A DNA stretch of 46,068 nucleotides from Escherichia phage vB_EcoP-720R6, in the sequence record ON470605; one strand, given 5' to 3'. Every line of letters starts with the position of its first letter. The stretch's first letter is position 1. The position numbers and the translations under genes were made by a program. Under the pieces are notes generated by a model that saw nothing but the letters and a program-made list of their open reading frames with translations, was not told the DNA's origin and made no database searches. This document shows positions 7,719 to 46,068 of the stretch, piece after piece.

Positions 7719-7733
7719 TTAGTATAAAAAAGC
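7719..7733. other. attR common core (lambda 15-bp core GCTTTTTTATACTAA, seen as reverse complement)
   Basis: TTAGTATAAAAAAGC at 7719-7733; flanked on the ybhB side by the attB B' arm sequence (AACTTGAGCGAAACGGGAAGG as reverse complement). Confidence 0.88.
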
Positions 7734-7880
7734 TGAACGAGAAACAGAAAACACTGTAAATATCAATATGTTACGAAAGATTTAGTCTAAATAATAGACT
7801 GCATAATACTACAAAACACAACATATCCAGTCACTATGAATCAACTACTTAGATAGTATTAGTGACCTGAGGCAGAGCAT
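7734..7880. promoter_or_regulatory. attR P arm (Int arm-type, IHF and Xis site region)
   Basis: Reverse complement reads CAGGTCACTAATACTATCTAAGTAGTTGATTCATAGTGACTGGATATGTTGTG...TTTCTCGTTCA, closely resembling the lambda attP P arm as recalled, with GTCACTAT arm-type repeats. Confidence 0.7.
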
Positions 7881-8177
7881 TAGCGCAAGGTGATTTTTTG
7901 TCCTCTTGCGCTAATTTTTTGTCAACGGACTGGGTTAGTTGAATTTACAACCATGCTCAGTATCTCGATAAGCGCAGAGAAATGATGCAGTGGTGGGCGG
8001 ATTGGCTTGATGAGAAGGTAGAGTGATCCGCCTTAACAACTATCGAAGCGCACAAAGCCTTGTGTGTCTCATAGGCTATGAAACAATCATTTTACATGGT
8101 TACTTCACTACTTCCGCACAATATGATATCGTTCACAATCTAAAAACATTAATAATTTATCCATTACCGCGGTTAAT

Positions 8178-8203
8178 GCCCGTCGCTTCCAACGGGCTTT
8201 TTT
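8178..8203 (+). terminator. Intrinsic terminator in P-arm-proximal region (candidate tI/sib analogue)
   Basis: GCCCGT-cgcttcca-ACGGGC followed by TTTTTT on the plus strand, the strand int transcription would continue on across att in the circular phage. Confidence 0.4.
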
Positions 8204-8352
8204 GTAAATTATATTTTTATTACCTTATATTAATATTGTGTCATCAAAAAGCATTTAAATTTTTATATTTAATTTCGTTGACGTCAATGTTTTTTGCCAA
8301 TGTACTTACTTCTTTATGTGAGCAGTTCATATTTTTGACGCCAACGAAACAT

Positions 8353-11298
8353 TTAGTGCCTCCCTTCTATTAAGTCTAACCTAGCTTTTATTCTTTCTAT
8401 TTCTCTGCGCTGCCATGCTGCCTCGATATAGAATAAGAGATCAGGTCTGACTCCCCATCTAGATCCTGCTGGCGTTATTTCAACGCGCTCAATGATGTCT
8501 TCCATTACCATCACTGGATTATCATCCTCATCAACAATGATGCTCCCGTCATTATCAGTCAGCGGCATTTCCCTTTGGCCAGTAATGACGTCATCATATA
8601 CTGCGGGATAATCGTCATAGCAAAGAAAGGCATAGCGGCATGTTGTGCTTTCTTCTTCCATGAGTCCGTGAGAAATAAGAACATCACGAAGTTGCTGCGC
8701 GATTACACCATGATGTATCCTCGCCCCTTCTTCCCCCTTTATAGCGACAGCGTTCAGCCATTTATAAGCGATATACCTGACGTCACCCCAGGCATCCAGC
8801 AATGCTTCGTCAGGAGAGACCGGCTCTGTCTTTAATGTTCCGTCACTGGTAACCACAGGATTGGAGCCAAGATAAACTGTCGAGAACCTGTTTCCCGGAC
8901 CACCAAGAGCATTTACATTATCAAGATAAGGTTTAACATCTCCGTTCTCAAAAAGATGTTCGAGTGCGTTATATACCGCGCGACGTGGAGTACTGCTTCC
9001 GGAACCATGCAACGTTATCATTGCACCATCTGCTGAAGACGTTGTTTCACCGCCGCTAACGATTAATCTCTGAGCGGTAACATCATCAGACGGTACTTTC
9101 TTCGCAATAATGGCGTAATTACCCTCAAGTTTGACTTCCGCGCGAACTTGTCCTGATGTACCGGCATGGACAGTCAGTGACTGGACGGCAACATCATCTG
9201 TGAAATCAACGGGTACAGGAACCGTCCTCACGCCTGACGTCGACATAAAAGTAGGAAGCGTTCTGTTAGGAGTGGCTCCGTAGACAAAATCCCTTGAAAC
9301 AAATTCTTCCTGTTTAATTTTCACCCTGAAACAATACAAATCAGCCGGGTGACCATCGTGAACATAAGGATATTTTCTGTTGTTATCCCCTATGCTCCAT
9401 GGGTTTAGAAAGTCTTCCCCACCGAAAATGTAGTACAGCCAGTTGTCTTTGATACAAACTGAACCAACACCAACCGCAGAGTTAACTATTCCGCCCTGAT
9501 AAATCTGATCAGTAACATTAACCCACTCTACATTATCCAGACTCCACTCATTGACGTTAACTCTGGTCATAAATGTTCTTGGATAATTTCCTGCATAACG
9601 GTTATCAGGTTCTCCTCCTTCCCACTCACCAAATGCGCGCTCACTGCCAAAAATAATCAGCTCATCGCCAACTTTGGCAAAAGGAAGGTTTGAGTGATGA
9701 ACATTATTTGGGAAGCGAAGAGAATTCCATGATGTACCTAAATCAGAGCTTCTGTGCAATGAACTACCGGGTTGAGTACTTAATGTCCCCCTGGTCGTCA
9801 GATACAGAATGCCATCATAATATTTTACACATGGCTCAGATGCATTCGCCTCATATTCTACAGGTATGCGTCTGCGAACAAAGCTACCAGGAGAACCGAA
9901 AGCATCAGAGAAATAGAGTATCCCAAGCTCGCGTGGATCAATATCACCATTATGGTAGCCAACAGCAAAACTGTTATCGCTAATCGTCGCAAAACTGTGA
10001 ATCTCAGTAACAGGAGTGCTTCCGTCAACAAAAGAAGGAATAGTTCCAAGACTGGTTTTTCTCCATGGTGACGAGTGAAATGATGTACCAAAACTCCAGT
10101 ATCTACCCTCGTTATTCTGATCCACATCCTGGGTATTTTGCGTCGTAACTGTAAAAGTATTTTTATCAATGACAGTAGTCACCGTCATATTCCCGGTAAC
10201 ACCTGTAACACCAGAGTTTGAGAAGTTGACAAAATCACCAGCAAATAATCCGTGATCAGTAATGCGAATATAAGCGACTTGCTGATTTGCTGCTTTCGTT
10301 ATACCACCATAAACGCGAAGGCTGCGACTCATTGGGCGATCCCACAACTCTGCAACCTGCAGTTTATTTCCGCTCACGGTCCGCGTCTCAATTACAGCAA
10401 AAAGGCGATTTCTGACAACCCCCATACTCATGCAGTGATAGTTAACTGTGGGATAGTTTTCATGTAAATCTGTAAGCCATTCCGGCGTTGTCCAGGTCTT
10501 CCCGTCATCTCCTGAGCGAACCCATGCAACATGGAGGTTATTTACACCATGGCGGTCTCCAGCCATAAAAGGCGCATAGATGACATTGTCATATACAAAC
10601 GTTTTATCCTGCGTCCAGGCGTTGTACCACGGTGTATCTGTAATTTTAAATAACTCTCCTTGGATAAAATCTTCAGAAGCATAAAAAAGAGGCTGACCCG
10701 GTATTCTCTCAAATAAAAAACGAGCATTTTTAAATCGACTGACATCTGGAAGAGTTGATACTTTAAAAGTAAGCCCTCGCCCATCTATCTTTTCACCACC
10801 TGTTGCAACAGAAAGTAATTCTGATAGAGCTGATGTATCATCATGAACACCATCACCAATAGCCCCCCAACCTCTTACATCATAACTGTCTCTCCATCTT
10901 GCTATCTGAAGTTTTGGGTATTTATTCGCTCCATCTGGGTCTTCTAATTGCTGTCGTAACTGATCAGGATCATACTTCAGCACATTCGGAAAATAGAACT
11001 GCTGTGTACCATACGCATCATAAACAGCCATAGAATGGCCTTGCACGGTTACGAATTTGGCAATCTGTCCGTTATATACCGGATATCCAGCAGCGTTAAT
11101 GATTATTGGTTGCGAAACAGGAATGTGAGAACCGTCTTCGTTCTCTACATAAACCTGAATCTGGTTTTCAGGATTTACCGGGTCAGTGTCAATTTTACCG
11201 ATATAAATTTTGCCATTGGCTACGGCTTTAAAAGAACGCGCCATAGTGAAGAGTTGCGAAGGCATACTCACTACAACATTGGCTGTAATGTCTGTCAT
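8353..11298 (-). CDS. Tailspike: P22 gp9-like N-terminal head-binding domain, sialidase-like body with two Asp-boxes (probable endo-N-acetylneuraminidase), C-terminal intramolecular chaperone domain
   Basis: 981 aa; N-terminus [43 protein letters not shown] resembles P22 gp9; Asp-boxes SGDDGKTW and SSDLGTSW; C-terminus YAFLCYDDY...[30 protein letters not shown] resembles the self-cleaving chaperone domain of endosialidases. Confidence 0.7.
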
Positions 11299-11444: not shown

Positions 11445-11696
11445 ATGGGAAGAGATGACCCGCAATTTAATCTGCGGCTACCTTACGAATTAAAGGAAAA
11501 ACTAAAACAGCGAGCCAAATCCAATGGCCGCTCTCTTAATTCAGAATTAGTTCAGATAGTGACTGATGCTGTATCAAAGCCATCCAAAATTTCAGGCTAT
11601 CGAGACGATGCGGAACGCATCGCTGATGAGCAGTCCGAACTTGTTAAGAAGATGGTGTTTGATACGCTGAAGGATTTGTACAAAAAACCCACCTGA
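11445..11696 (+). CDS. mnt: Mnt-like ribbon-helix-helix repressor (Arc/MetJ family)
   Basis: 83 aa, MGRDDPQFNLRLPYELKEKLKQRAKSNGRSLNSELVQIVTDAV...SELVKKMVFDTLKDLYKKPT; RHH N-terminus and Mnt-like length/C-terminus; no arc or ant next to it. Confidence 0.8.
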   Translation: MGRDDPQFNLRLPYELKEKLKQRAKSNGRSLNSELVQIVTDAVSKPSKISGYRDDAERIADEQSELVKKMVFDTLKDLYKKPT

Positions 11697-12842: not shown

Positions 12843-14840
12843 CTATTCTGACAACGCATCAGACTTAGCCCCCTGAGTAAGGGCGTTAATGGCCTTTTGC
12901 GCCTGCTGCATGGCTTTCTCAAACGCTGTTGATCCGCGTGGGGTGTTTGCCATTCGGAGCATTGCATTTCTGAATGGCTCGCTCTCATAGGCGCGAGTAA
13001 GAAGTCCGTAGCTTACTGCTGCGCCAGTTGTAGCCGGGTTCATTGCCGTCCCATACCCAATTATGAACGGGATAGTTTGCTGCCCTGTGGGTGTTGTTAC
13101 TGCCGCTTTTGCAGCCTGCTGCGTGGATTGCAGGTAGTTTTTTAATCCTTTCAGATAAGCAGCGTCCTGCCCCTTAAATGTGATGCCAGTCTGGTTTTGC
13201 AGGATGTTAAGCTGCCGAAGGAACTGGTCAGGGGATCCGCCAGATTTCTCCATCGCCTTTCCAATGATGCCATTGCGCATTTGCGTCCTGCCAACACGAC
13301 CAACTGAGTTATACAGAGTCTTAATTTCCGATTTGTTCTTGCTGAATAGCATGTTGTTGACAACTTCCGGCGTCAGGTCGCCTTTCATGAGAACATTCTT
13401 CAGCCTGGTATTCTTTAGTTTCGCCGCTTCGTCAGCGTAGACGGCATTGGCCTGCTGATATTTACGGAGAGTATCGTTGCCAAGATTCTGACCAATGGCA
13501 CCATTGATATCGTCGGTCATTGCCTTGTAAACGCGCTGAATGGCAGCATCGGAACGGTTTGGTAACACTGGTCGCTCACCTTTCACGTCCATTCTGAACT
13601 GGCTGCGCAGGTCGCTTAATTGCTTCAAATCCAGATTTACCGGACCATCAGGACCAGCATTGCGAACAAGTTCATCACGATATGATTGAAGTTTTGAAAT
13701 AGTCTCGTTATCAGCAACCTTACCAAGCTTCTGCAGGTTAGATATCTCAGTATCAATCTGCTGAATTGCTCGCGCAGGCTGGATATTGACTCCCGCCATT
13801 GCATTCTGAACCTGCTCAAGACGGTTCCCTGCAGCACGACGAATTCCTGATGTTTTCGCTTTAAGGCTGTCAATAACAACAGCTGGATCATACTCACCGA
13901 ATTTATCAGCAAATCTCTGCACCAACTGGCTTCTCGCTTCCTGTTGCGTTGCTCTCATTCCGCTTGTGCCAGCCAGGGGGATATTTTCCGCTGTCGTCTG
14001 CGCCATTTTCCCGACGCGGGAAGTAGGCTGTAACAGGTCTGTGGTGTGCAGAGGAACTCCTTCACGCTCTGCAAATCTGATAGCCTGCTGCGCTTCTGGC
14101 GCAATAGCACCACTAACGCCACGATAAGCAGCACCTAATCCACGTCCAGCAGCGTTAATAGCGCCGCCTGCCAGAACGCCAACACCTAAATCGGTGGCGA
14201 GGGCTTCCGCATCATCTTTCGCACTATTTGCAGCAAGTGACCCGACTGCGTTTTCAGCGAGAAGGCGAGTTGCACCCTGAGCGATTCTACCAGCGAGTGT
14301 TGGTGCCTGTGTTGCCGCTCTCTCAATGCCAGCAGGAGTGAGGTAAGGCAATGCCTCAGCAAATACCCTGCCCTCTGTAGTTTGTGGAGTCAGCGCGCCT
14401 TGCTGAAGGCCAAAGTCCTGCTCTAATCCCTGCGTTGTTACTCGTGGCGCTGGGTGATATGTCCCATCGCCAATTCCGAGTTTACCGCCAGCCCAAGCCG
14501 CCGCGCTTGTTACAGCATCGGCAACTGATGCAGGTATGTTTGCCACGTTCACGCCAGCCTGCACCAGTCCGCGACCAGTTTCTTTCACGGCTTCACCAAG
14601 ATCAGACATAAATCCACTTTGCTGTGGTTGTTGCTGTGCTACTGGTTGCTGTGTATCCACTGGCTGCACAGATGGCAATGGATAGGCAGCATAGAAAGCT
14701 TGCTTAGCCTGCTCTGCATTTTCTCCGGCTTGCGGGGCCACGACTTCATTGAAGTATTGCTCCTGAGCCTGCGCTTTTTGTTCTGGTGCTAACGCCTGAT
14801 ACTGTGGAGAGGCGATAACATCTTTCCATGCTTTAGCCAT
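12843..14840 (-). CDS. Ejection/injection protein, P22 gp16-like by position
   Basis: 665 aa, last and largest of the gene block after the needle gene; Gly/Ala/Gln-rich; assignment by synteny with P22 order 26-14-7-20-16. Confidence 0.6.
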   Translation of the reverse strand: MAKAWKDVIASPQYQALAPEQKAQAQEQYFNEVVAPQAGENAEQAKQAFYAAYPLPSVQPVDTQQPVAQQQPQQSGFMSDLGEAVKETGRGLVQAGVNVANIPASVADAVTSAAAWAGGKLGIGDGTYHPAPRVTTQGLEQDFGLQQGALTPQTTEGRVFAEALPYLTPAGIERAATQAPTLAGRIAQGATRLLAENAVGSLAANSAKDDAEALATDLGVGVLAGGAINAAGRGLGAAYRGVSGAIAPEAQQAIRFAEREGVPLHTTDLLQPTSRVGKMAQTTAENIPLAGTSGMRATQQEARSQLVQRFADKFGEYDPAVVIDSLKAKTSGIRRAAGNRLEQVQNAMAGVNIQPARAIQQIDTEISNLQKLGKVADNETISKLQSYRDELVRNAGPDGPVNLDLKQLSDLRSQFRMDVKGERPVLPNRSDAAIQRVYKAMTDDINGAIGQNLGNDTLRKYQQANAVYADEAAKLKNTRLKNVLMKGDLTPEVVNNMLFSKNKSEIKTLYNSVGRVGRTQMRNGIIGKAMEKSGGSPDQFLRQLNILQNQTGITFKGQDAAYLKGLKNYLQSTQQAAKAAVTTPTGQQTIPFIIGYGTAMNPATTGAAVSYGLLTRAYESEPFRNAMLRMANTPRGSTAFEKAMQQAQKAINALTQGAKSDALSE

Positions 14841-16141
14841 TAATCACCCCATAGTGAAGAAAAATTACTGCCAGTAGTAGGTTGTTGCGCTGGCGTATTC
14901 TGTACTGGCTCCTGATAATCAAACTGTTTTTTAACAGTGCTCAACTTGCTTTCAAGCTGATTTCTAATCTTTCCGATAGAGTCACGAAAAGCCTTTTCAC
15001 TCATTTTGGGGCTTAGGGCACCAACCGCATCGGATAATTTTTTACCCTCAGCATCTGAAAGAGCGCCCATACCCTTCAGGGACTGCACCATAGGAAGGAA
15101 TGTTTGAGCTTTAAAGGTGTCGAGCCTTGCTTCAAAGTTAGCCGCATCAGAGCCAGGGACTGTCGGAAACGCTGAGCGAATTCCTACTGCTTTTGAAAGG
15201 CCGGGGCTTTGCTCTATCTCGTTGAGAGAATCAAGCGCGGTGCTGAACGTATCAACTGCACCCTGAGCGGCGGCCTGCCTGTCAGCGCGGGCTATGTCAG
15301 CCTTTTGCCGAACATCTGCCTGTTTCTGTTTTAGCTCTTCAAGCTTTAACTGATTGCTTTCTCTGGCTATCTGTCTGTCCAGAGCCTTTTCTTGTAATTC
15401 TGCTCTTTGTATTTCGCGGGAAAGAGCAGCATTCTGTGCGCTGATGTTCTGTCCACGTATCTGGATGTCCTGACCACGTGCTGTTAGTGCTTCTCCAGCC
15501 TGATTGCTGCGGATTGTCTCTGCCAGCCTGCCTCGGTCAATTTCACGACCAGCCATCTTGTCCTGAACATTGAAGTAATCAATCGGACCAAGAGCAGCCA
15601 TTCCAAGGTGATCAACAAACTCACCAAATCCTGAAGGGTTCTGCTGATACATCTGAGCAACGCTGTTAGGGTCAACACCGACGCGAGTCAGTTCCTTGGC
15701 GTTGTTTTGCAGCCATGATTGCATTGCTTCTGGAGACGATGACGCAAGGCGTGCGCCAGCCGCTAAGGTGCCGATAGAATTACGCTGGTCTTCGTCTGCC
15801 CACTTCATACCAGACTGAATCTTCTCTAATTGACCAGGGTATTTGGTCATCAGATCTCGAACCTGCTGTCGATCACCGGACTGGATGGCTGCCGCATATT
15901 CTTTTTGGAATGCAGCATCCGCTTCCTGTTGCTTTGCGGCTTGATATGTTTGAGCGACACTACCCAGTCCCTGCAACGCCTGAAGGCCGATGTTATTGCG
16001 ACCTGAACGCTCCATTTCGTTGTTCTGGCGAATATAGGCCAACGCCTCACTTACATCACTTGCCTTTGGCGCATTTGAGTTTTGCCCACCGATACCAGCA
16101 AGAAAACCGCCTGAGTTGATTCCTTGTTGCCAAGTAGCCAT
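14840..16141 (-). CDS. Ejection protein, P22 gp20-like by position
   Basis: 433 aa, coiled-coil rich; synteny. Confidence 0.55.
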   Translation of the reverse strand: MATWQQGINSGGFLAGIGGQNSNAPKASDVSEALAYIRQNNEMERSGRNNIGLQALQGLGSVAQTYQAAKQQEADAAFQKEYAAAIQSGDRQQVRDLMTKYPGQLEKIQSGMKWADEDQRNSIGTLAAGARLASSSPEAMQSWLQNNAKELTRVGVDPNSVAQMYQQNPSGFGEFVDHLGMAALGPIDYFNVQDKMAGREIDRGRLAETIRSNQAGEALTARGQDIQIRGQNISAQNAALSREIQRAELQEKALDRQIARESNQLKLEELKQKQADVRQKADIARADRQAAAQGAVDTFSTALDSLNEIEQSPGLSKAVGIRSAFPTVPGSDAANFEARLDTFKAQTFLPMVQSLKGMGALSDAEGKKLSDAVGALSPKMSEKAFRDSIGKIRNQLESKLSTVKKQFDYQEPVQNTPAQQPTTGSNFSSLWGD

Positions 16142-16150
16142 ATTCCCACC

Positions 16151-16831
16151 TTAAAACAATGATCCAAGACCACCGATAATGCCGCCACCAATAGCGCCAA
16201 CAGCCGTACCTATTCCTGGCACCACAGAGCCAATCATCGCCCCTGATGCCGCACCGCTCATGGCACCGCCCAAAGCTGATTGCAATCCTGATGGTCGGTT
16301 AGCATTCGCCGCAGATGCTGCCGCCTGCTGTTGATACAATTGGCTGACGTTGTTAGCGTAGTTCTGCCCAGCGTTTGCCTGACCTGTAAGAGCACCAAGG
16401 CCGATATTTGCCAGATTGTTGTAGTTGTTCATCTGACCTGACAGCCAGTTTTGACCGAGTGTAGGTGCGATTGCTGCTAACTGGTTTCCTGTTGCTGTAG
16501 AGCCTAATCCACCCGTTGCCTCTGCTGCTGCCAGACTCTGGTAACGCGCCTGACCAGCAAGGTCTTTGTACTGCTGGGAGTTGTAATACTGGTTAAGCGC
16601 CTGACCTTGCCCCTGAAGAGAGGAAAGATTTTGCAACTGTGATACGTACTGCTGAGCGAGTGGCGTGAACGGTGCAAGGTTCTGCATGTTCGTCTGCCAC
16701 ATTTCACGTTGCAGTTCGATGCCCTTTTCAGTTGCGCGTGCCTGGGCTTTAGATCCGGAGTCGCTGCCGCCTTTCATATACCCATTCATGGGAAGCAATT
16801 TATTCTTGAAGCTTTCGCTAAGTACTAACAT
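16151..16831 (-). CDS. Ejection protein, P22 gp7-like by position
   Basis: 226 aa with Gly-rich C-terminus GAMSGAASGAMIGSVVPGIGTAVGAIGGGIIGGLGSLF; synteny. Confidence 0.55.
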   Translation of the reverse strand: MLVLSESFKNKLLPMNGYMKGGSDSGSKAQARATEKGIELQREMWQTNMQNLAPFTPLAQQYVSQLQNLSSLQGQGQALNQYYNSQQYKDLAGQARYQSLAAAEATGGLGSTATGNQLAAIAPTLGQNWLSGQMNNYNNLANIGLGALTGQANAGQNYANNVSQLYQQQAAASAANANRPSGLQSALGGAMSGAASGAMIGSVVPGIGTAVGAIGGGIIGGLGSLF

Positions 16832-17288
16832 TTAATAGCTCCTCATATTTCGAACGAGGTAATTGATAGAGGGTGATTCCAACCGGTTTTCCGTTACTCA
16901 TGTAAGAATCATCAAGGTGACCAACACGGGTAGCGCCAAGCAAACGGATAATTGCCCGTCCGTATTTCGTTGTGTCAGGAACCATAGTGATGCTGTTAAG
17001 GAATGGTGAGTTTTCGAGAAGCCATTTGCAGAATAATCGATGCCCTTGCAGTGCATATTCACCACGGAATCCGGGGTCGTACACCGCATGGCATTCAACA
17101 ACGCTATGCCAGAAGTTACGCACTTCATGAACTCCAGCCAGCACTAATCCTTCGTAGATGCCGAGGTATACCGCATCAGGCTTGATGTAGTATTTATCTC
17201 CACTGTCTACGATATTTCCCGTGTTTGCCGGGTTGTTAAGGAATTCTGCAAGCTTCACCGGGTTATCGATGAGCTTTATTTCCATCAC
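16818..17288 (-). CDS. Head-assembly/DNA-stabilisation protein, P22 gp14-like by position
   Basis: 156 aa immediately downstream of the needle gene; synteny only. Confidence 0.5.
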
Positions 17289-19656: not shown

Positions 19657-19665
19657 TTATTCACC

Positions 19666-20296: not shown

Positions 20297-20337
20297 TGTC
20301 TTCTCCCAATAAAAATGGGGCCGAAGCCCCACCAAAA

Positions 20338-32354: not shown

Positions 32355-32356
32355 CG

Positions 32357-32671: not shown

Positions 32672-32688
32672 CGGTACTTACCCTCAGT

Positions 32689-37411: not shown

Positions 37412-37442
37412 CAGCCTCACAACTCTAAAACACACAACAATA

Positions 37443-37470
37443 ACCCGACCTTAGCGTCGGGTTTTCTTTT
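37443..37470 (+). terminator. Intrinsic terminator downstream of cI
   Basis: ACCCGAC-cttagc-GTCGGGT followed by TTTTCTTTTT, about 30 bp after the cI stop. Confidence 0.6.
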
Positions 37471-37536
37471 TCCAAAATATAAACCCATTAAATACAAAGC
37501 GTTATAAAAAACTAATTATATTTAGAACATTTTGTA

Positions 37537-37565
37537 TTGACTCGATAAAGTACAAATCGTACTAT
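37537..37565 (+). promoter_or_regulatory. Candidate pL (-35 TTGACT, 17-bp spacer, -10 TACTAT) with overlapping OL palindrome AGTACAAATCGTACT (37549-37563)
   Basis: Sigma70-like hexamers with canonical spacing upstream of nutL and N; palindrome with AGTAC arms overlaps the spacer and -10. Confidence 0.55.
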
Positions 37566-37604
37566 TTAGCCATCAGCAGGACGCACTGACCACCATGAAG
37601 GTGA

Positions 37605-37635
37605 GGCTCTTAAAAATTAAGCCCTGAAGAAGGGC
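37605..37635 (+). promoter_or_regulatory. nutL (boxA-like GGCTCTTA plus boxB GCCCTGAAGAAGGGC)
   Basis: boxB hairpin at 37621-37635 preceded by a boxA-like element, upstream of N. Confidence 0.8.
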
Positions 37636-37903
37636 AGCATTCAAAGCAGAAGGCTTTGGGGTGTGGTGAAGCCAGCTAGTCACTGGCAAGTGCTTACCTA
37701 CTGTTGAGCGGTGAAGCGCTCCCAACGCTAGCAATAGCGTGGACGAGATGGGGAGCCGCGGGCGATAAGGCCGCCATAACGCGCACGTTGTCGCATGGAA
37801 AAATCGCTGGGGTGCCGGTTATACCCCTCCGAATGAGACTCAACAAGCTGGAGCTAGACTACCAGCCACCACACCACCAAAGCTAACTGACAGGAGAATC
37901 CAG

Positions 37904-38801
<898 letters not shown>

Positions 38802-38834
38802 TTAAAAGACAGGCATACTAATAAACACTGCACT

Positions 38835-38862
38835 GTGTATTCATTCCAACGAGTGAATACAC
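38835..38862. promoter_or_regulatory. 28-bp near-perfect palindrome (11/12-bp arms, 4-nt centre)
   Basis: GTGTATTCATTC-caac-GAGTGAATACAC; no adjacent U-tract on either strand. Confidence 0.35.
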
Positions 38863-39014
38863 GGAGCAATGTCGCTCGTAACTAAACAGGAGCCGACTTG
38901 TTCTGATTATTGGAAATCTTCTTTGCCCTCCAATGTGAGGGCCTTTTTATATGCATACCAATAACGCTTCACTCGAGGCGTTTTCGTTATGCAATCAAAC
39001 AGAAGGAGCATCCT

Positions 39015-39185
39015 ATGCAACAGTTCGCTATTGCAGGGGCGGCATCGGTTCGCCCTTTCAACCCGATTTTATCGGTACAGCATTCACGAAAAAATATTTT
39101 AACCGGAGCAGACTTTAAACAACCAAGAATGAAAAGTTTGCTAGAAAAGCTTTGGGATATTTTGAAACAACAAGGCCGCCCATGA
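39015..39185 (+). CDS. cIII: CIII-like protein (FtsH inhibitor family)
   Basis: Internal ATG at 39015 with RBS AGGAG 6 nt upstream; MQQFAIAGAASVRPF...KSLLEKLWDILKQQGRP resembles lambda CIII (MQYAIAG...ESLLERI...DILNQPG). Confidence 0.7.
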   Translation: MQQFAIAGAASVRPFNPILSVQHSRKNILTGADFKQPRMKSLLEKLWDILKQQGRP

Positions 39186-39340
39186 GTTTTACAGATAACT
39201 GGTCAGACGAAGAATTCATTCGTCAGATGAAAGATTTAATCGGCAACGAAGGAGATATTCATGTCACTTGCAACCACAGTGAAGGAGAGCAAATTACAGA
39301 GACGCATGTACACGCAGAAAGCTCTCTGGTATCGCCATAA
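39182..39340 (+). CDS. Small hypothetical protein
   Basis: ATG overlaps the cIII stop (ATGA); 52 aa MSFTDNWSDEEFIRQMKDLIGNEGD... Confidence 0.4.
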   Translation: MSFTDNWSDEEFIRQMKDLIGNEGDIHVTCNHSEGEQITETHVHAESSLVSP

Positions 39341-39441
39341 TGGCGACCGCGAAGGAATGCGGGTATGCCTTAATTTGTCCAGAGTCGAAGTATTAAATCA
39401 GCGTTATTTCCTTGGGCCATGTCCATTCTGAGATCAAACAT

Positions 39442-40047
39442 ATGAGCAAAGAATTTTATGCAAGGCTGGCAGCCATTCAGGAGAATCTGAACGCGCCAAA
39501 GAATCAGTACAACTCATTCGGTAAATATAAATACAGAAGCTGCGAAGACATTCTTGAAGGCGTTAAGCCGTTACTGAATGGCCTGTTTTTATCAATCAGC
39601 GATGAAGTTGTGTTGATTGGTGATCGGTATTATGTGAAAGCCACGGCAACTATTACCGATGGCGAAAACAGTCATACGGCAACCGCTCTTGCACGAGAGG
39701 AAGAAAGCAAGAAAGGAATGGATTCTGCACAAGTTACGGGAGCTACAAGCTCTTATGCACGCAAGTATTGCCTCAATGGTTTGTTCGGCATTGATGATGC
39801 GAAAGATGCAGATACCGACGAGCATAAACATCAGCAGAACGCAGCAGCAAAGCAATCAAAACCATCACCTACACCTGAACAGGTTCTAAAAGCATTCACT
39901 GACGCAGCAATGCAGAAAAACACCGTAGAAGAGCTTAAACAGGCGTTCGCCAAAGCGTGGAAGATGCTCGAAGGTACACCGGAGCAGCACAAAGCGCAGG
40001 ACGTTTACAACATCAGACGAGACGAATTAGAAGGGGCAACTGCTTAA
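39442..40047 (+). CDS. erf: ERF-family single-strand annealing protein
   Basis: Internal ATG at 39442; MSKEFYARLAAIQENLNAPKNQYNSFGKYKYRSCEDILEGVKPLL typical ERF N-terminus. Confidence 0.78.
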   Translation: MSKEFYARLAAIQENLNAPKNQYNSFGKYKYRSCEDILEGVKPLLNGLFLSISDEVVLIGDRYYVKATATITDGENSHTATALAREEESKKGMDSAQVTGATSSYARKYCLNGLFGIDDAKDADTDEHKHQQNAAAKQSKPSPTPEQVLKAFTDAAMQKNTVEELKQAFAKAWKMLEGTPEQHKAQDVYNIRRDELEGATA

Positions 40048-40430
40048 TGGCACACTCGATTACTGTAAGACTAAACAAGCCAGCAAGAGAGTTTCAGGCC
40101 GGGGAAAATATCGGATTCAATATCCGTGCTGGCGTTCAGTATTACGATCGCCAGACAAAAAAGAAAGAATGGACAAACTACAGCGCCGTTGTATTTGCCA
40201 AGCCGGGAGCGCAAGCGGATTACTACCGTAGTATTCTTGTTGAAGGTGGCATTGTAGAAATTACCGGAGAAAACATCAGGGTTGATGTTTATCAGGGGCA
40301 AAATGGTCAATCAATCACTCTTGAATTACTGAATGCAAAGATTGGATTTGCAACATCAGGAAACTGCCAACAGCAACAAAGTAGCAATCATCAAAATCAT
40401 CCTGAATACGATGATTCAATTCCCTTCTAA
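40047..40430 (+). CDS. Phage single-stranded DNA-binding protein with SSB-type acidic C-terminal tail
   Basis: ATG overlaps the erf stop (TAATG); 127 aa ending EYDDSIPF, resembling the SSB C-terminal DDDIPF tip. Confidence 0.65.
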   Translation: MAHSITVRLNKPAREFQAGENIGFNIRAGVQYYDRQTKKKEWTNYSAVVFAKPGAQADYYRSILVEGGIVEITGENIRVDVYQGQNGQSITLELLNAKIGFATSGNCQQQQSSNHQNHPEYDDSIPF

Positions 40431-40453
40431 ATTAGCAATATAAGGATTCCATT

Positions 40454-40750
40454 ATGCCAGCGCCTATGTATGGTGCGGATGACCCGCGCCGCTGTTCCGG
40501 CAAATCAGTATCGGAGGTGCTGGATAAATTCAGAAAAAACTACGACCTGATAATGTCGCTACCGCAGGAAACGAAAGAGGAAAAGGAATTTCGTCATTGT
40601 ATATGGCTTGCAGAGAAAGAAGAACGCGAGCGAATTTACCAGACATCAATCCGACCATTCCGCAAAGCCACATATACCCACTTCCCTGAATATATCGACC
40701 CGCGCCTGCGTAATTACCGCTCACGCTATGGCGCTATCAGTAATGACTGA
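40454..40750 (+). CDS. Hypothetical early-left protein
   Basis: 98 aa MPAPMYGADDPRRCSGKSVSEVLDKFRKNYDLIMSLPQETKEEK... Confidence 0.55.
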   Translation: MPAPMYGADDPRRCSGKSVSEVLDKFRKNYDLIMSLPQETKEEKEFRHCIWLAEKEERERIYQTSIRPFRKATYTHFPEYIDPRLRNYRSRYGAISND

Positions 40751-40760
40751 GGAATTAACA

Positions 40761-41051
40761 ATGAAAACAATGAAGCTAAACATCGACCTCGGAAAATACG
40801 TTATTACCGGAACCAAACACGACCTGATTCTTAGCGAAAGAGGAATTATCAAAGAAGGCGAGAATGCAGGGAAAGAAACGCTCAGTCGTATCGGTTATTA
40901 CAGCAAGTTTGAGCATCTGGTTAAAGAGTTATGCAACCGTGAAATCCTGTTATCTCAGGCGCAGACGCTACAGGATATTCAGCAGCATATCGAGACTTTA
41001 GGTGTGTCACTTAGCATGGCTATTGACCAGTTCGTTGAGAGTAAATCATGA
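40761..41051 (+). CDS. Hypothetical early-left protein
   Basis: ATG at 40761 preceded by GAGG; [28 protein letters not shown]...; the longer ORF-track frame from 40608 overlaps the upstream gene. Confidence 0.5.
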
Positions 41052-41208
41052 GAGGACTTGCATACAATCCCGGCATTCTTCCGGCAGAAATGATTATTCG
41101 CCAACGCGTAAAGCCAATGCCATCGAGAGAGGAATTGCTTAAGAGAAATTCTTTTCCGTCAGTAAATCAAAACAAATATCTGAATGCGATGTTGCAGAGT
41201 GGGAAAAA

Positions 41209-41769
41209 ATGAAACAAATGACACTAATTGAGATGGATGGATTTCTGAAAGGTAAATGCATCCCAAGTGATTTAAAGGTTAACGAAACAAACGCTGAATA
41301 TCTTGTGCGTAAATTTGCTGAAGCGGAGGCCAAGATTTCGGCTCTGTCCGAAGACCAACAGAGAGCGATTGAGTCAATTAAGCAGGCTGATTCGGCTGTT
41401 AAGTTGGCACACGAGAAGTTTTCAGCGCTGGCGGCGGAGAATGCGGGGCTGAAGTCTGGCGCTATGGACGAAATCAAGGTTATCAACCGTGGAGGGCAGG
41501 CATATTGCGTAAAAGATGGAGTGCAAGTTAATCCCATGTATGCAAGAGGGTGGAATGACTATCGCGCAAAGTCTCTGCAATCAGACACCCCAGCCACCGA
41601 CGCTTTCCTGGCTGAAATACGTGCGGAGGCGTTTAATGACCTTTGCTCGGCGTTCGTTAAACACGCGAATCTCGCGGGAATGGATGATGGTGAGCTAGTG
41701 AGGCTTAAATATGCGACGGACGCCCTGCTGCATTGTGCGGAACAGCTTCGCAAAGGAGGCAACCAGTGA
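41209..41769 (+). CDS. Hypothetical early-left protein
   Basis: 186 aa [49 protein letters not shown]... Confidence 0.55.
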
Positions 41770-42632
41770 GCGAAATTAATTACCAGGCACTGCGTGAAAA
41801 AGCAGAAAAAGCAACGTGTTGTGTATGGTCGCTCGAATATGGAGAGAGCCGATTTGATGGTGATGATGCTCTAATTCATCGCGAGGCTGCTGGATATATT
41901 CCCATTTGCAGAATTGAAGGAGCGCATCCAGAAAGCGGTTTCGATGAAGATTTCCAAATGGAACAGCAGGCCAATGCTGAATTCATCGCCGCAGCCAATC
42001 CCGCTACCGTCTTGGCGCTGCTGGATGAGCTGGAAAGAAACCAGCAATACATCAAACGCCGTGACCAGGAGAACGAGGATATTGCGCTAACGGTAGGGAA
42101 GCTGCGTGTTGAGCTTGAGGAGACAAAATCAAAACTCAACGAGCAGCGCGAGTATTACGAAGGTGTCATCTCGGATGGAAGTAAGCGCATAGCAGAGTTG
42201 CAGACAAAATCTGCACCAGATTCGTTTGGCATCATCGGTGAAAATATTCGAACACAGGATAATCGAATAACGTCAGATCCTATGTTTTGTGTGTATCAAA
42301 AGCGCGAAATCGTTGTTGATGCTGATTATGACTATGACCGGATTGTCTGGGTTGATGAAGATGGCAATGAAGCCAATAAACTCCAAAGTCGTCGTCTCGA
42401 ACTACTTCATGAAAACTTTCGGGAGCCACCAGAAAAATGGCGGCGCGTTGCTGTGAAAGATATTGATGAATTCGTTACCTGCTGTTTCACCGAACAGGGT
42501 TGTAAAGATTACCTAGCAGTCAATGGTCACAATCTTCGATTGCCATTTATATATGTAAAAAGCGGTTTCAGGAACGCTGAATATATCGGCATAAGAAACT
42601 GGCTTGCTGGCATTCGCATCAAAGGAGAGTGA
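41766..42632 (+). CDS. Ea22-like protein (coiled-coil)
   Basis: GTG at 41766 overlapping the upstream stop gives [27 protein letters not shown]...; central coiled-coil; the ORF-track ATG at 41733 is an alternative start. Confidence 0.6.
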   Translation: MSEINYQALREKAEKATCCVWSLEYGESRFDGDDALIHREAAGYIPICRIEGAHPESGFDEDFQMEQQANAEFIAAANPATVLALLDELERNQQYIKRRDQENEDIALTVGKLRVELEETKSKLNEQREYYEGVISDGSKRIAELQTKSAPDSFGIIGENIRTQDNRITSDPMFCVYQKREIVVDADYDYDRIVWVDEDGNEANKLQSRRLELLHENFREPPEKWRRVAVKDIDEFVTCCFTEQGCKDYLAVNGHNLRLPFIYVKSGFRNAEYIGIRNWLAGIRIKGE

Positions 42633-42633
42633 T

Positions 42634-42921
42634 ATGGCAACTTTGCAGGAATTAATCGACCTGACGCCAGAACAGGAAAAAGCGTGGAATCGCCTTGTGA
42701 AGGCTGTAAAGGATTTCAGGGCAGCCGGAGGAAAGTTTTATAGCGTCCTGGACACGCTGAGCGCATACAACGGCGAGCACGTTGCCAGCATTGATAACGA
42801 TAAGGGCTACCACACTGCAAGCGTCTATATGCCTAGCATTGATGCGCCAGGGCTAACCAGTTGGGCTGATGATTGGCACGGCATCACGCTGAAAGATGGC
42901 GTTGAAGTGGATGAGGACTAA
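42634..42921 (+). CDS. Hypothetical early-left protein
   Basis: ATG at 42634 with RBS AAAGGAGAG; MATLQELIDLTPEQEKAWNRLVKAVKDFRAAGG... Confidence 0.55.
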   Translation: MATLQELIDLTPEQEKAWNRLVKAVKDFRAAGGKFYSVLDTLSAYNGEHVASIDNDKGYHTASVYMPSIDAPGLTSWADDWHGITLKDGVEVDED

Positions 42922-42924
42922 CAC

Positions 42925-43797
42925 ATGACTACTTTTACCGACAAAGAACTGATTAAAGAAATCAAAGAGCGAATCGGCAGCCTGGACGTGCGAGACGATA
43001 TTGAGCGCCGTGCTTATGAAATCGCACTGGCATCGCTGGAAGCAGAGCCTGTTCTGTATCAGTCCTGCACTCGCCCCACCTGGAATAGCGGTGTTCCGTG
43101 GACGGAATGGAAAGAACGTAGTCGTGAGTGCTACGAAGACGATTTGCGTTTTACAGACACGCCTGACCATGCCGGTTGGATATACAAATGTCGAAAACTA
43201 TACACCACTCCGCCAGCGCCGATAGCGTTAGAGGCCATTGAAAACGCAATTGAATACATTCGTAGTATCGCTTTTCACATCGATGAAGACGATTACCACG
43301 GCAAACATATTGCGTATTTCATGCGACAAGCATTGGCCTGGCTGGAAGGGTATTCATGCAGCGACGACAGACTGGGTAAAGCCGAGAATCAAACAGTACA
43401 CGGCAACCAGGCTGCCGAATCCAATCGCGGTAATGAGTGGACCGGCAATCCTGATATTGATAACGCCATCATCATGCTCGATCGCATAGATACGCTGGAA
43501 AGTTGCGATGATGACCGTATTGAGGCTGTTAAGGCTGTTTTGCGTAGACTGGCTGGCAACTATCCGGTAATTCCGGATAGTTGGATAAGCTGTAGTGAGC
43601 GAATGCCGAACGATAAACAGTATGTTTGGTGTTGGGGTAAGTCTTACGGCTGGACTGAGTGCGATACCTTCGAAGGGTATTACGATTGGTCGAGAAACAA
43701 ATGGTGGGCAGTTACTGACGATGGGGAAGAACCGGCATCGAAAGTAACACACTGGATGCTGCTACCGGAGCCGCCGCTGGAGGTTAACCGTGGCTAA
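42925..43797 (+). CDS. Hypothetical protein with DUF551-like C-terminal motif
   Basis: 290 aa; C-terminal ...KVTHWMLLPEPPLEVNRG resembles the DUF551 signature common in lambdoid early-left regions. Confidence 0.55.
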   Translation: MTTFTDKELIKEIKERIGSLDVRDDIERRAYEIALASLEAEPVLYQSCTRPTWNSGVPWTEWKERSRECYEDDLRFTDTPDHAGWIYKCRKLYTTPPAPIALEAIENAIEYIRSIAFHIDEDDYHGKHIAYFMRQALAWLEGYSCSDDRLGKAENQTVHGNQAAESNRGNEWTGNPDIDNAIIMLDRIDTLESCDDDRIEAVKAVLRRLAGNYPVIPDSWISCSERMPNDKQYVWCWGKSYGWTECDTFEGYYDWSRNKWWAVTDDGEEPASKVTHWMLLPEPPLEVNRG

Positions 43798-44074
43798 CCT
43801 GCAACTTGCCGTTAAAGGTGAATACTTCGATTCCATGATTCGCGGGGAGAAAACGGAAGAGTATCGCTTGTGTAATGACTACTGGAAAAAGCGCCTCGTT
43901 AACCGTAAGCATGACCGCCTGATTATCACAAAGGGATATCCGAAGCGCGACGATTCCAGCCGCAGAATTGACGTCCCGTATGACGGATATGAAATCAAGA
44001 CAATCACACATCCGCACTTCGGCGATAAACCGGTAAAGGTTTACGCGATAAAGGTAAATATCGGCAATGAATAA
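43790..44074 (+). CDS. Small protein, ASCH/PUA-like (tentative)
   Basis: GTG start with RBS GGAGG 6 nt upstream; 94 aa MANLQLAVKGEYFDSMIRGEKTEEYRL... Confidence 0.5.
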   Translation: MANLQLAVKGEYFDSMIRGEKTEEYRLCNDYWKKRLVNRKHDRLIITKGYPKRDDSSRRIDVPYDGYEIKTITHPHFGDKPVKVYAIKVNIGNE

Positions 44075-44146
44075 CAATCCTCGCACTCGCGAGGATTTCT
44101 TTTATCTGAACTCGCTACGGCGAGTTTTGTTTTATGGAGATGATAA

Positions 44147-44314
44147 ATGCACTTCCGAGTCACAGGAGAATGGAATGGAGAGCCATTCAACAGAGTTATC
44201 GAAGCAGAGAACATCAACGACTGCTATGACCACTGGATGCTATGGGCGCAGATAGCACATGCAGACGTAACCAATATTCGAATTGAAGAACTGAAAGAAC
44301 ACCAAGCCGCCTGA
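44147..44314 (+). CDS. Small hypothetical protein (55 aa) ending at an intrinsic terminator
   Basis: ATG at 44147 with GGAG upstream; MHFRVTGEWNGEPFNRVIEAENINDCYDHWMLWAQIAHADVTNIRIEELKEHQAA; two other frames are also open here. Confidence 0.35.
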   Translation: MHFRVTGEWNGEPFNRVIEAENINDCYDHWMLWAQIAHADVTNIRIEELKEHQAA

Positions 44315-44327
44315 TGGCGGTTTTTTT
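44306..44327 (+). terminator. Intrinsic terminator
   Basis: GCCGCC-tgat-GGCGG followed by TTTTTTT. Confidence 0.5.
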
Positions 44328-44341
44328 ATTGGAGACAAGAA

Positions 44342-44686
44342 ATGTCAGATTTGGCTATGAAGGTTTTGAAATGGCAATCGACTGGCGATGTTGGCATCAG
44401 TAGCGCAACTCTTGCCTCAATCGCATGTGGACTGAAAAAGAATATCTATGGTCATCACTTCGGCGCTCCCCATGACGCAGCCGATTTCAGACGATGCGTT
44501 GCACTTGTTGAGCAGATTCCAGAAATCAGAGATTCATTCAACAAGGTTGCAAAGCGCGTTCCAGCATTCAAAGGAATCCTCAACGAATGGGATTCCCTCG
44601 TTGCTCTGTTGAAGTCTGAAATGAAGATACACGGAAACAAAGCACCAGAGACTTACAGAAGAATCAGCGAGCTACGCAAGGACTAA
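44342..44686 (+). CDS. Hypothetical protein adjacent to xis
   Basis: 114 aa MSDLAMKVLKWQSTGDVGISSATLASIACGLKKNIYGHHFGAPHDAADFRRC... Confidence 0.55.
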   Translation: MSDLAMKVLKWQSTGDVGISSATLASIACGLKKNIYGHHFGAPHDAADFRRCVALVEQIPEIRDSFNKVAKRVPAFKGILNEWDSLVALLKSEMKIHGNKAPETYRRISELRKD

Positions 44687-44801
44687 CCATGGAATCACAC
44701 AGCCTCAAACCCAATGAGGCCTGTTCATTTCTCAAGATATCCAGACCTACCATTGCCGCATCAATGCGGCTTTTCTTGCGTGTAATTGCGGAGACTTTGC
44801 G

Positions 44802-45020
44802 ATGTACTTGACACTTCAGGAGTGGAACGCACGCCAGCGACGCCCAAGAAGCCTTGAAACAGTTCGTCGATGGGTACGCGAGTGCAGGATATTCCCTCCT
44901 CCGGTTAAGGATGGAAGAGAGTATCTGTTCCACGAATCAGCGGTAAAGGTTGACTTAAATCGACCAGTAACAGGTAGCCTTTTGAAGAGGATCAGAAATG
45001 GGAAGAAGGCGAAGTCATGA
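44802..45020 (+). CDS. xis: Excisionase Xis
   Basis: 72 aa MYLTLQEWNARQRRPRSLETVRRWVRECRIFPPPVKDGREYLFHESAVKVDLNRPVTGSLLKRIRNGKKAKS, lambda Xis as recalled; overlaps the int start. Confidence 0.95.
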   Translation: MYLTLQEWNARQRRPRSLETVRRWVRECRIFPPPVKDGREYLFHESAVKVDLNRPVTGSLLKRIRNGKKAKS

Positions 45021-46068
45021 GCGCCGGGATTTACCCCCTAACCTTTATATAAGAAACAATGGATATTACTGCTACAGGGACCCAAGGACGGGTAAAGAGT
45101 TTGGATTAGGCCGAGACAGGAGGATAGCAATCACTGAAGCAATACAGGCCAACATTGAGTTATTTTCAGGACACAAACACAAGCCTCTGACAGCGAGAAT
45201 CAACAGTGATAATTCTGTTACGTTACATTCATGGCTTGATCGCTACGAAAAAATCCTCGCCAGCAGAGGAATCAAGCAGAAGACTCTCATAAATTACATG
45301 AGCAAAATTAAAGCAATAAGGAGGGGTCTGCCTGATGCTCCACTTGAAGACATCACCACAAAAGAAATTGCGGCAATGCTCAATGGATACATAGACGAGG
45401 GCAAGGCGGCGTCAGCCAAGTTAATCAGATCAACACTGAGTGATGCATTCCGAGAGGCAATAGCTGAAGGCCATATAACAACAAACCCGGTCGCTGCCAC
45501 TCGCGCAGCAAAATCAGAGGTAAGGAGATCAAGACTTACGGCTGACGAATACCTGAAAATTTATCAAGCAGCAGAATCATCACCATGTTGGCTCAGACTT
45601 GCAATGGAACTGGCTGTTGTTACCGGGCAGCGAGTTGGTGATTTATGCGAAATGAAGTGGTCTGATATCGTAGATGGATATCTTTATGTCGAGCAAAGCA
45701 AAACAGGTGTAAAAATTGCCATCCCTACAACATTGCATGTTGATACTCTCGGGATATCAATGAAGGAAACACTTGATAAATGCAAAGAGATTCTTGGTGG
45801 AGAAACCATAATTGCATCTACTCGTCGTGAACCGCTTTCATCCGGCACAGTATCAAGGTATTTTATGCGCGCACGAAAAGCATCAGGTCTTTCCTTCGAA
45901 GGGGATCCGCCTACCTTTCACGAGTTGCGCAGTTTGTCTGCAAGACTCTATGAGAAGCAGATAAGCGATAAGTTTGCTCAACATCTTCTCGGGCATAAGT
46001 CGGACACCATGGCATCACAATATCGTGATGACAGAGGCAGGGAGTGGGACAAAATTGAAATCAAATAA
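44998..46068 (+). CDS. int: Tyrosine integrase Int (lambda-type)
   Basis: 356 aa MGRRRSHERRDLPPNLYIRNNGYYCYRDPRTGKEFGLGRDRRIA...HELRSLSARLY...GHKSDTMASQYRDDRGREWDKIEIK, lambda Int as recalled; stop is the last codon of the window. Confidence 0.97.
   Translation: MGRRRSHERRDLPPNLYIRNNGYYCYRDPRTGKEFGLGRDRRIAITEAIQANIELFSGHKHKPLTARINSDNSVTLHSWLDRYEKILASRGIKQKTLINYMSKIKAIRRGLPDAPLEDITTKEIAAMLNGYIDEGKAASAKLIRSTLSDAFREAIAEGHITTNPVAATRAAKSEVRRSRLTADEYLKIYQAAESSPCWLRLAMELAVVTGQRVGDLCEMKWSDIVDGYLYVEQSKTGVKIAIPTTLHVDTLGISMKETLDKCKEILGGETIIASTRREPLSSGTVSRYFMRARKASGLSFEGDPPTFHELRSLSARLYEKQISDKFAQHLLGHKSDTMASQYRDDRGREWDKIEIK

Follow-up and report, generated by a model that had tools for sequence, protein, structure and literature searches.

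The stretch of DNA analysed here, referred to as the window (46,068 nucleotides (nt), to which all coordinates refer), comes from sequence record ON470605, Escherichia phage vB_EcoP-720R6. It holds a prophage inserted in an Escherichia coli chromosome at attB-lambda, the attachment site of phage lambda. Positions 1-7628 are chromosomal and contain the end of uvrB, bioDCFB, bioA and ybhB. The prophage part, 7719-46068, carries genes for the tail, head, lysis, late control, replication, immunity, early-left functions and integration (Table 1). The G+C content is 53.9% in the chromosomal left part and 47.7% from 7719 onward. End to end, the prophage measures ~38.4 kb and lies between ybhB/bioA and ybhC.

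Its left end is marked by the 15-bp lambda core GCTTTTTTATACTAA. The window has a single copy of this core, on the minus strand, against a chance expectation of 0, and in genomes with an empty site the match to the window stops at 7733. The last position of the window is the stop codon of the 356-amino-acid (aa) integrase. The right end was read in a sibling genome, NZ_CP182365 (locus L004), whose copy is 99.95% identical to the window. Two differences separate them, a single nucleotide polymorphism (SNP) at 26491 and a run of 20 N in the window (33389-33408), where L004 has one A. There, a second exact core lies 74-88 bp past the int stop codon (L004 46123-46137), and ybhC comes next. Both ends of the prophage carry the identical 15-bp core, as attR in the window and as attL in the sibling. 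The initial annotation, made from the letters of the window, had proposed a mosaic prophage at attB-lambda with attL to be sought 50-150 bp beyond the right edge. Both points were confirmed, as attL is present in the sibling at that distance and the bio genes, ybhB and ybhC flank the element as they flank the lambda site.

The same 46-kb arrangement was found in five of 5426 complete E. coli genomes, at 99.9-100% identity and in a single alignment. These five siblings stem from different laboratories and are annotated in RefSeq, where the element is not described as a phage. Two copies have acquired additional DNA. Ecol_AZ159 (NZ_CP019008) carries ISEc52 inside the early region of the prophage, and in NZ_OZ038590 the late half has gained ~1.25 kb. 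The copies in M21816, Br_54_kylling and TUM11352 are free of such insertions.

Table 1. Features of the prophage in the window, from attR to the integrase gene (percentages are nucleotide or protein identities as in the cited comparison; ORF, open reading frame; PGAP, Prokaryotic Genome Annotation Pipeline)
Feature	Position	Strand	Basis or comparison
attR core, 15-bp overlap region of lambda, GCTTTTTTATACTAA	7719..7733	-	left prophage end; exact match
P arm of attP, lambda-type, with P1/P2 arm-type Int sites and sib/tI hairpin	7734..7924	-	87% to lambda 27534-27742
Stub, 3' end of an IntS/CUS-3-type integrase gene (84 nt)	7943..8026	+	shared block runs to ~8065
Empty neuO site	8238..8239	.	CUS-3 1562-2411 (850 bp: neuO and heptanucleotide repeats) absent
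Tailspike, 981 aa: P22-type head-binding domain, endosialidase, C-terminal chaperone	8353..11298	-	Pfam
Mnt-like Arc-family repressor	11445..11696	+	Pfam Arc and Repressor_Mnt; 76% to P22 Mnt
Predicted lipoprotein gene, 139 aa	11713-12132	-	signal peptide, lipobox LLSGC
Predicted lipoprotein gene, 161 aa	12267-12752	+	signal peptide, lipobox LLAGC
Ejection proteins gp16, gp20, gp7, then gp14 and tail needle gp26 with Sf6-type knob	12843..18238	-	PHROG 770 (gp16-like), PF16532 (needle)
CUS-3-type head and packaging genes: gp10, gp4, 62-aa ORF, coat, scaffold, portal, TerL, TerS, 80-aa gene, Rha	18238..27661	-	inside the 18009-29463 block
Lysis cassette: S with dual start, lambda-type R, Rz with embedded Rz1 (~28070-28246), 50-aa ORF	27868..29225	-	lambda/CUS-3 comparison
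tRNA-Thr(TGT) and tRNA-Asn(GTT) in late-operon leader	29467..29622	-	ARAGORN; Rfam 61.5 and 55.3 bits
Candidate late promoter overlapping the Q 3' end	29679-29708	-	TTGAAA-18-CATAAT; function inferred
Q antiterminator, 172 aa	29686-30204	-	PF06530; 97% to CUS-3 Q
nin region: NinH, RusA, DUF1364, NinF, NinX, NinE, NinB, small ORFs	30201..32895	-	names from PGAP annotation of sibling
Primase-helicase, 626 aa in sibling	32973..34872	-	Toprim_2 and AAA_25/DnaB_C; mEp043-like
O-like replication initiator and DUF2740 ORF	34980..35979	-	PF04492; mEp043-like
Lambda-type nutR-tR1-cII-oop segment	35972..36418	-	98.4% to lambda 38247-38693, 7 mismatches
Immunity region: cro (36425-36640, -), OR, cI (36716-37411, +), OL	36425..37570	.	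Cro HTH_3; cI HTH_3 and Peptidase_S24
Lambda-type pL leader, nutL (boxB 37621-37635), N (37904-38227)	37571..38227	+	N protein 97.2% to lambda
Early-left accessory region: 164-aa antisense ORF, cIII-like (39015-39185), Erf (39442-40047), 127-aa SSB-like, Abc2, Ea22-like, DUF551, ASCH, small ORFs	38220..44686	.	PHROG 550 (cIII), PHROG 44 (SSB), PF13935
Lambda xis and int: xis 44802-45020, int 44998-46068	44771..46068	+	97.9% nt to lambda 27812-29109

The integration functions are of the lambda type. The Int and Xis proteins are 98.9% and 98.6% identical to those of lambda. At the other end of the element, local blastn against lambda aligned 7715-7924 (P arm and sib/tI) at 87% identity. The arm sites GGTCACTAAT and CATAGTGACTG are kept in the P arm, and so is the sib/tI hairpin TTAGCGCAAG...CTTGCGCTAA at 7879-7920. 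The P' arm lies beyond the window and is 100% lambda in the sibling. A 55-aa ORF upstream of xis encodes a protein 98% identical to that of lambda and 100% identical to that of CUS-3 (CP000711), a P22-like K1-specific temperate phage of E. coli RS218, in which this ORF adjoins attR. CUS-3 has also been described as a P22-like phage of the K1 strain EV36 (PMC10883804).

Identity to CUS-3 resumes 18 bases after the end of the lambda-like P arm (7924). The window segment 7943-8238 is 99.7% identical to CUS-3 1266-1561, and the int gene of CUS-3 ends at 1349; what is left of this gene is annotated by PGAP as a partial pseudogene. The stub was considered as a mark peculiar to this phage, and this idea was rejected. 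A block of ~125 nt containing it (window 7943-8065, L007 ~2840-2960, L008 ~2844-2960) also adjoins a lambda-type sib/P arm in unrelated prophages at att-lambda, at ~90% identity. Its carriers include an O157:H7 EC4115 prophage with the effector genes nleD and nleH1-1 and another P22-like prophage, that of ECE170. The stub junction is old and widely shared. Next to the occupied att-lambda site of ECE170 (L008 814-1944), between bioA and ybhB, an InsQ/TnpB RNA-guided endonuclease gene was observed.

Beyond the stub, the window is in register with CUS-3 on both flanks of the missing neuO segment and resumes at CUS-3 2412, with a junction ambiguity of at most 3 bp. A search for AAGACTC repeats of the neuO type across the whole window gave none. 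The neuO gene is described as a cargo gene of CUS-3, and the acetylation that it mediates is said to protect against K1 phage (PMC13001214). Without neuO, the lysogen should not O-acetylate the capsule of its host. The endosialidase identity of the tailspike, the absence of neuO and the int stub had all been missed by the initial annotation.

The anatomy of the two prophage ends suggests how the lambda cassette was acquired. A CUS-3-like K1 phage, normally using IntS at argW, would have swapped its whole cassette, sib-attP-int-xis, for a lambda-type one. This exchange probably took place through homologous recombination in two shared stretches, the ~125-nt int-3' stub and the 55-aa gene upstream of xis. 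Several other joints coincide with boundary sequences annotated in the CUS-3 record: CUS-3 identity breaks at CUS-3 positions 5518, 25522 and 25822, which fall within, or at the limits of, bsq1, bsq3 and bsq4 as annotated there.

The tailspike gene follows the empty neuO site. Its product is 98.8% identical to SiaK1 of CUS-3. A head-binding domain (PF09008, E 1.5e-66) covers residues 1-113, and the other Pfam matches, PF12218, PF12217 (beta-propeller, E 8e-233), PF12195, PF12219 and PF13884, comprise all four endosialidase domains and the C-terminal chaperone. We infer that the virion adsorbs to the K1 polysialic-acid capsule and degrades it. The tailspike sequence is present in 194 of the 5426 complete genomes, always at 95% identity or more and nearly always at 99% or more. 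In 18 complete genomes, the endosialidase tailspike lies beside ybhB and attR-lambda. No gene separates stub and tailspike in ten of them (the five identical copies and five others), and in the remaining eight, including IAI39 and CE10, an 'acyltransferase' (neuO) stands between the two. Prophages of the CUS-3 type at att-lambda are, hence, already present in public genomes, and the window holds their neuO-free form.

The hosts of the siblings were tested for the K1 genotype by appending 600 nt of neuS from UTI89 to an 801-nt junction query and counting the matching places. The combined query found two places in all five siblings; these are counts, the alignment not being displayed, and the one-place baseline with the junction only is listed for Ecol_AZ159 only. 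In strain 998, the chimeric query matched one place only. These numbers suggest that neuS is present in the siblings, i.e., that they have a K1 genotype. A first query, which combined the junction, the whole tailspike and neuS, was discarded as confounded, since the head-binding domain of the tailspike could also pick up other prophages of the P22-like group. The possibility that the siblings belong to sequence type (ST) 1193, a K1 clone that is mostly neuO-negative, was rejected, as the ST1193 paper gave no support for it. The sibling M21816 has been reported as ST131 (PMC10896549), and Ecol_AZ159 has been discussed among ST131 isolates (PMC5517641).

From 18009 to 29463, the prophage is colinear with CUS-3 over 11.5 kb at 96.4% identity. 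Starting with gp10, this block takes in coat, scaffold, portal, TerL, TerS, the 80-aa gene, Rha, Rz/Rz1, R and S and extends to the leader upstream of S. Its proteins are 95-100% identical to those of CUS-3, for instance TerS (99.3%), TerL (99.8%), portal (99.6%), scaffold (99.3%) and coat (95.0%). The similarity to P22 is uneven. Gp10 (93%), the 80-aa protein (99%) and Rz (95%) are closest to their P22 counterparts, gp4 (41%), portal (35%) and coat (29%) are distant, and tblastn of TerS, TerL and scaffold against P22 (gp3, gp2 and gp8) gave no match at E<1e-3. The needle and ejection genes are of another origin. At the DNA level, they match phage Gally (97.4%) and Sf6 (96.1%) best, and not CUS-3, with which the needle, gp14 and the ejection proteins share only 22-71% protein identity. 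In P22-like virion clusters, few parts are as variable and as mosaic as genes 16 and 20 (PMC10883804). A degenerate tandem repeat of 42 nt (17912-18035; three copies, 68% matches) was noticed in the 5' part of the needle gene and probably reflects a heptad-like coiled-coil periodicity of gp26.

In the lysis cassette, the S and R proteins are 99.1% and 98.1% identical to those of lambda. Over S, R and Rz up to its codon 83 (28197-29465), the DNA is 92.8% identical to that of lambda. Lambda identity stops at 28197, inside Rz/Rz1, and the Rz protein as a whole is 59% identical to that of lambda versus 95-97% to those of P22 and CUS-3. In Rz1, a proline-rich stretch comes after the lipobox (VSAC). 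Between Q and S, a pair of tRNA genes replaces 299 bp of CUS-3 (25523-25821, between the annotated bsq3 and bsq4). Identity to CUS-3 stops at 29463 and restarts at 29628, flanking the two genes, and the pair is common to phage phiv205-1. No other known non-coding RNA was found with Rfam at gathering thresholds. Q matched neither lambda nor P22.

The regulatory region combines lambda-like DNA with a foreign immunity. The cII protein (36012-36305) is 97.9% identical to that of lambda, the oop equivalent lies at ~35990-36066 on the plus strand, and boxA and boxB of nutR were found exactly at 36385-36416. Lambda identity begins at 36418, 7 nt after the cro stop codon. On the other side of the immunity region, the pL leader with nutL (37571-37665) is 98.9% and the N segment (37857-38227) 96% identical to lambda DNA. 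Between them, neither cro nor, at the DNA level, the N-terminal domain of cI resembles lambda, and cro has no P22 match either. For the segment 36419-37010 (cro, operators and the DNA-binding half of cI), the identity is 94% with VT2-Sakai and Nil2 and 99.3-99.7% with three P22-like phages, 683R2, Dewey and Louie. An inverted, operator-like element of 20 nt is common to OR and OL (36666-36685 and 37547-37566). The C-terminal half of cI (37001-37405) is 93.8% identical to lambda DNA, so only its DNA-binding half is foreign.

On this evidence, the element is read as the complete prophage of a temperate podovirus belonging to the P22-like group (Lederbergvirus), with CUS-3-type head-assembly genes and a lambda integration cassette at the lambda site, which comprises window positions 7719-46068 and ~88 bp beyond the edge. 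We give this reading a probability of roughly 85%. All listed ORFs are uninterrupted in the window apart from the 20-N run. By analogy with its relatives, the phage would integrate and excise as lambda does. The cI repressor would hold pL and pR off until its SOS-driven cleavage induces the prophage. N at nutL/nutR, and then Q, would drive early and late transcription, and Int and Xis would excise the DNA at the 15-bp cores, sib limiting int expression afterwards. The O-like protein and the primase-helicase would fire the internal origin, and DNA would be packaged by a headful mechanism. S, R and Rz/Rz1 would lyse the cell. At the next host, the tailspike would depolymerise polysialic acid to reach the cell surface, and the needle and ejection proteins would deliver the DNA.

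The strongest alternative is a cryptic resident prophage, vertically inherited in one clone and functionally dead or decaying. It would account for the presence of identical copies in only five of 5426 genomes, one of them reported as ST131 and another discussed among ST131 isolates, for the insertions in two of these copies, for a changed base in boxA of nutL and for the fragments of a DUF551 gene called by PGAP. This alternative seems unlikely to us, though it has to be taken seriously. Full-length ORFs are present for all head, tail, lysis, regulatory, replication and integration functions, and most of them have a homologue with 95-100% identity in one sequenced phage or another (the ejection-protein ORFs were judged by length and DNA identity only). 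Moreover, both att sites are exact, and only 1 SNP over 38 kb separates the five copies from the window, with no sign of pseudogenisation.

Several points, nonetheless, speak against a complete and functional K1 phage. Two of the five sibling copies have been hit by insertion sequences (IS), as would fit an element long inherited vertically and possibly decaying. Identity to lambda is no more than 87% in the P arm, and the Xis, IHF and Fis sites in it are assumed to be functional. The sole difference from lambda in 95 nt of the pL leader, C to G at 37605, falls on the first base of nutL boxA (CGCTCTTA to GGCTCTTA); the boxA of nutR is unchanged. Inducibility and particle production are predicted from the gene complement. 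The host sequence of the window was seen for 7.7 kb only, so that its K1 status is read from the siblings, where the presence of neuS is in turn deduced from match counts. The cassette swap and its crossover points are likewise deduced from anatomy, and the direction of the neuO difference (never gained versus lost) is a matter of interpretation.

As for the parentage, the initial annotation had described a three-way mosaic of lambda, other lambdoid phages and P22. Most of its details held. Int, Xis, N, nutL/nutR, cII, oop, S and R are lambda-like as it said (97-99% protein identity, with the nut sites and oop in lambda-like DNA), the virion module follows the P22 gene order including the Rha-like and 80-aa genes, and the joints that it placed at the end of cro, within Rz/Rz1 and at the Q/tRNA/late-leader boundary lie at 36418, at 28197 and at 29463/29628. 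The structural block also has clear homology to P22-like phages, being 95-100% identical in protein to one of them. The claim that cI, cro, Q, the Erf/SSB pair and the primase-helicase are of non-lambda types was correct for cro, Q and the primase-helicase, with its Toprim_2 and AAA_25/DnaB_C domains. It was too broad for cI, in which the C-terminal 405 nt are lambda-like. The 127-aa protein after Erf belongs to the SSB family by PHROG 44 but matches no Pfam SSB model. The Erf block (39182-40764) is 96.4% identical to CUS-3.

What did not hold is the coarse attribution to three parents. Five reference phages were compared locally, and the prophage was tiled at 90% nt identity or more. CUS-3 accounts for 51% of the prophage, lambda for 12.6% and P22 for 3.6%, and ~30% is without a match at this threshold to any of the five. 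Local blastn found no match in the window to lambda 1-27500, which holds the head and tail genes. For the late half, the best phage record is CUS-3, with 69% covered at 97%, and no phage record covers 80% of either prophage half. Taken literally, a three-parent history would assign integration, N, cII and lysis to lambda, the virion to P22, and immunity, Q, recombination and replication to another lambdoid phage. The lambda-like segments, 93-99% identical at the named genes, agree with it, as do the P22-like virion order and the similarity of gp10 and the 80-aa protein to those of P22. P22, however, matches very little of the prophage DNA, and TerS, TerL and scaffold have no P22 match. The S and R genes and the joint in Rz lie within the uninterrupted 11.5-kb CUS-3-like block and were therefore inherited with that block, with no separate contribution of lambda. 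Furthermore, the part assigned to another lambdoid phage splits at least into mEp043-like, VT2-Sakai-like, CUS-3-like and unmatched pieces. As a literal history, this model is already contradicted, and we consider it quite improbable.

The virion module is, in fact, of the CUS-3 sequence type in P22 order and not that of P22. The prophage is a mosaic of many origins that has the backbone and the host specificity of CUS-3. There are at least five further sources: the Sf6/Gally-like ejection proteins and needle, the mEp043-like replication genes, the VT2-Sakai-type immunity, the phiv205-1-like tRNA pair and the unmatched ~30%. Such mosaicism is expected for lambdoid and P22-like phages and leaves the current understanding of lambdoid mosaicism unchanged.

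The run of N falls in the replication genes. It splits the primase-helicase into ORFs of 542 aa and 159 aa. A real frameshift was considered and rejected, as the run corresponds to a single A in L004, where the 626-aa ORF is intact; it is an assembly or masking gap and not a mutation. The same run is the one feature in favour of an assembly or scaffolding artefact joining pieces of different prophages, an explanation that is hardly conceivable given that the run replaces one base within an otherwise colinear gene and that five complete genomes from different laboratories show the same 46-kb arrangement in one alignment. A candidate origin lies inside the O-like gene, with iterons at 35401-35488 and an AT-rich stretch at 35360-35400. 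The 19-nt palindromic unit TGTCACCGTTTTGGTGACA occurs 3 times versus 0.02 expected, and there are three to four copies in all, spaced by 23-24 nt. This layout is that of a lambda-style origin, with different iterons.

A wider interpretation can be put forward more tentatively. In this scenario, an intact, inducible, K1-specific temperate podophage circulates in neuO-free form in a K1 clone (ST131 by one typed sibling). The stub and the 55-aa gene serve as portable homology arms that let P22-like and lambda-like phages swap integration cassettes, and neuO is an 850-bp moron gained or lost separately. We regard this scenario as possible but doubtful. If true, portable arms would explain the retargeting of K1 phages between argW and att-lambda, and neuO status would be uncoupled from the presence of CUS-3-like prophages in K1 epidemiology.

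In surveys, neuO serves as a stand-in for the CUS-3 phage (e.g., PMC13001214). The endosialidase-bearing CUS-3-like prophage lacks neuO here and in ten of the 18 att-lambda copies, and a K1 strain without neuO can therefore nonetheless harbour a prophage of this type. If present in an ST131 background, a temperate phage specific for K1 could also matter for work on K1-directed phages and endosialidases. Moreover, the prophage preserves, to the base, what looks like the footprint of an integration-cassette exchange between phage types, with the old int stub on one side of the cassette and a small shared gene on the other.

Some accessory genes deserve mention. The two predicted lipoprotein genes are divergent and lie between gp16 and mnt, at the position of sieA/immI in P22. 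They belong to PHROGs 6823 and 6067, both without assigned function, and neither has a Pfam or PADLOC match; they are candidates for prophage-expressed surface or exclusion functions. The Mnt-like repressor gene is not accompanied by ant or arc. On the early-left side, a 164-aa ORF (38220-38714, minus strand) runs antisense to the pL operon, overlaps the end of N and occupies the position of sieB in lambda and P22. Its N-terminus is coiled-coil-like, a CxxC...CxxC motif lies in its C-terminal part, and it falls in PHROG 1244 (function unassigned), with no Pfam or PADLOC match. Among ten candidate unannotated ORFs, PADLOC found no defence system. An intact 290-aa ORF with a C-terminal DUF551 was observed at 42925-43797 (plus strand), where PGAP annotates two partial DUF551 pseudogenes in the sibling. 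This suggests a fusion of, or an insertion between, two DUF551-type genes.

Among known phages, CUS-3 is the closest relative. Tailspike, TerS to gp10, Rha, S, R, Rz, Q, NinH, RusA, Erf, the 127-aa protein and Abc2 are 95-100% identical in the two, and the gene order is the same. Nevertheless, a genome-wide match of 51% at 90% nt identity or more is below species-level similarity. CUS-3 integrates with IntS at argW and carries neuO, whereas the prophage described here has lambda int, xis and attP at bio-ybhC, only the 84-nt int stub and no neuO. CUS-3 has other alleles of the needle, gp14, gp7, gp20 and gp16, its ant gene is absent here, the late leader of the prophage has two tRNA genes, and the immunity, N, O and helicase genes differ.

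With lambda (NC_001416), the prophage shares the integration cassette including sib, N with nutL, the segment from nutR to cII and oop, the C-terminal domain of cI, S, R, the 55-aa ORF and the att site. In contrast to lambda, it has neither the head and tail genes nor rexAB and exo/bet/gam of that phage, and immunity, Q and replication differ. P22 (NC_002371) has in common with it the gene order of virion and lysis, the head-binding domain of the tailspike and the Erf/Abc2-type recombination genes. The P22 genes sieA, gtrABC, ant and arc are absent here, and endolysin, int and immunity differ. Sf6 and Gally (needle and ejection), mEp043 (replication) and VT2-Sakai, Nil2 and vB_EcoP-683R2 (immunity) are each the best match for one module, at 94-99.7% nt identity, and none of them covers more than about half of either prophage half. 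The prophages most similar in position are the CUS-3-like ones at att-lambda in IAI39 and CE10 (both O7:K1) and in others, which were compared over the junction and share the same succession of ybhB, attR, P arm, stub and tailspike at 98.5-99.5% identity.

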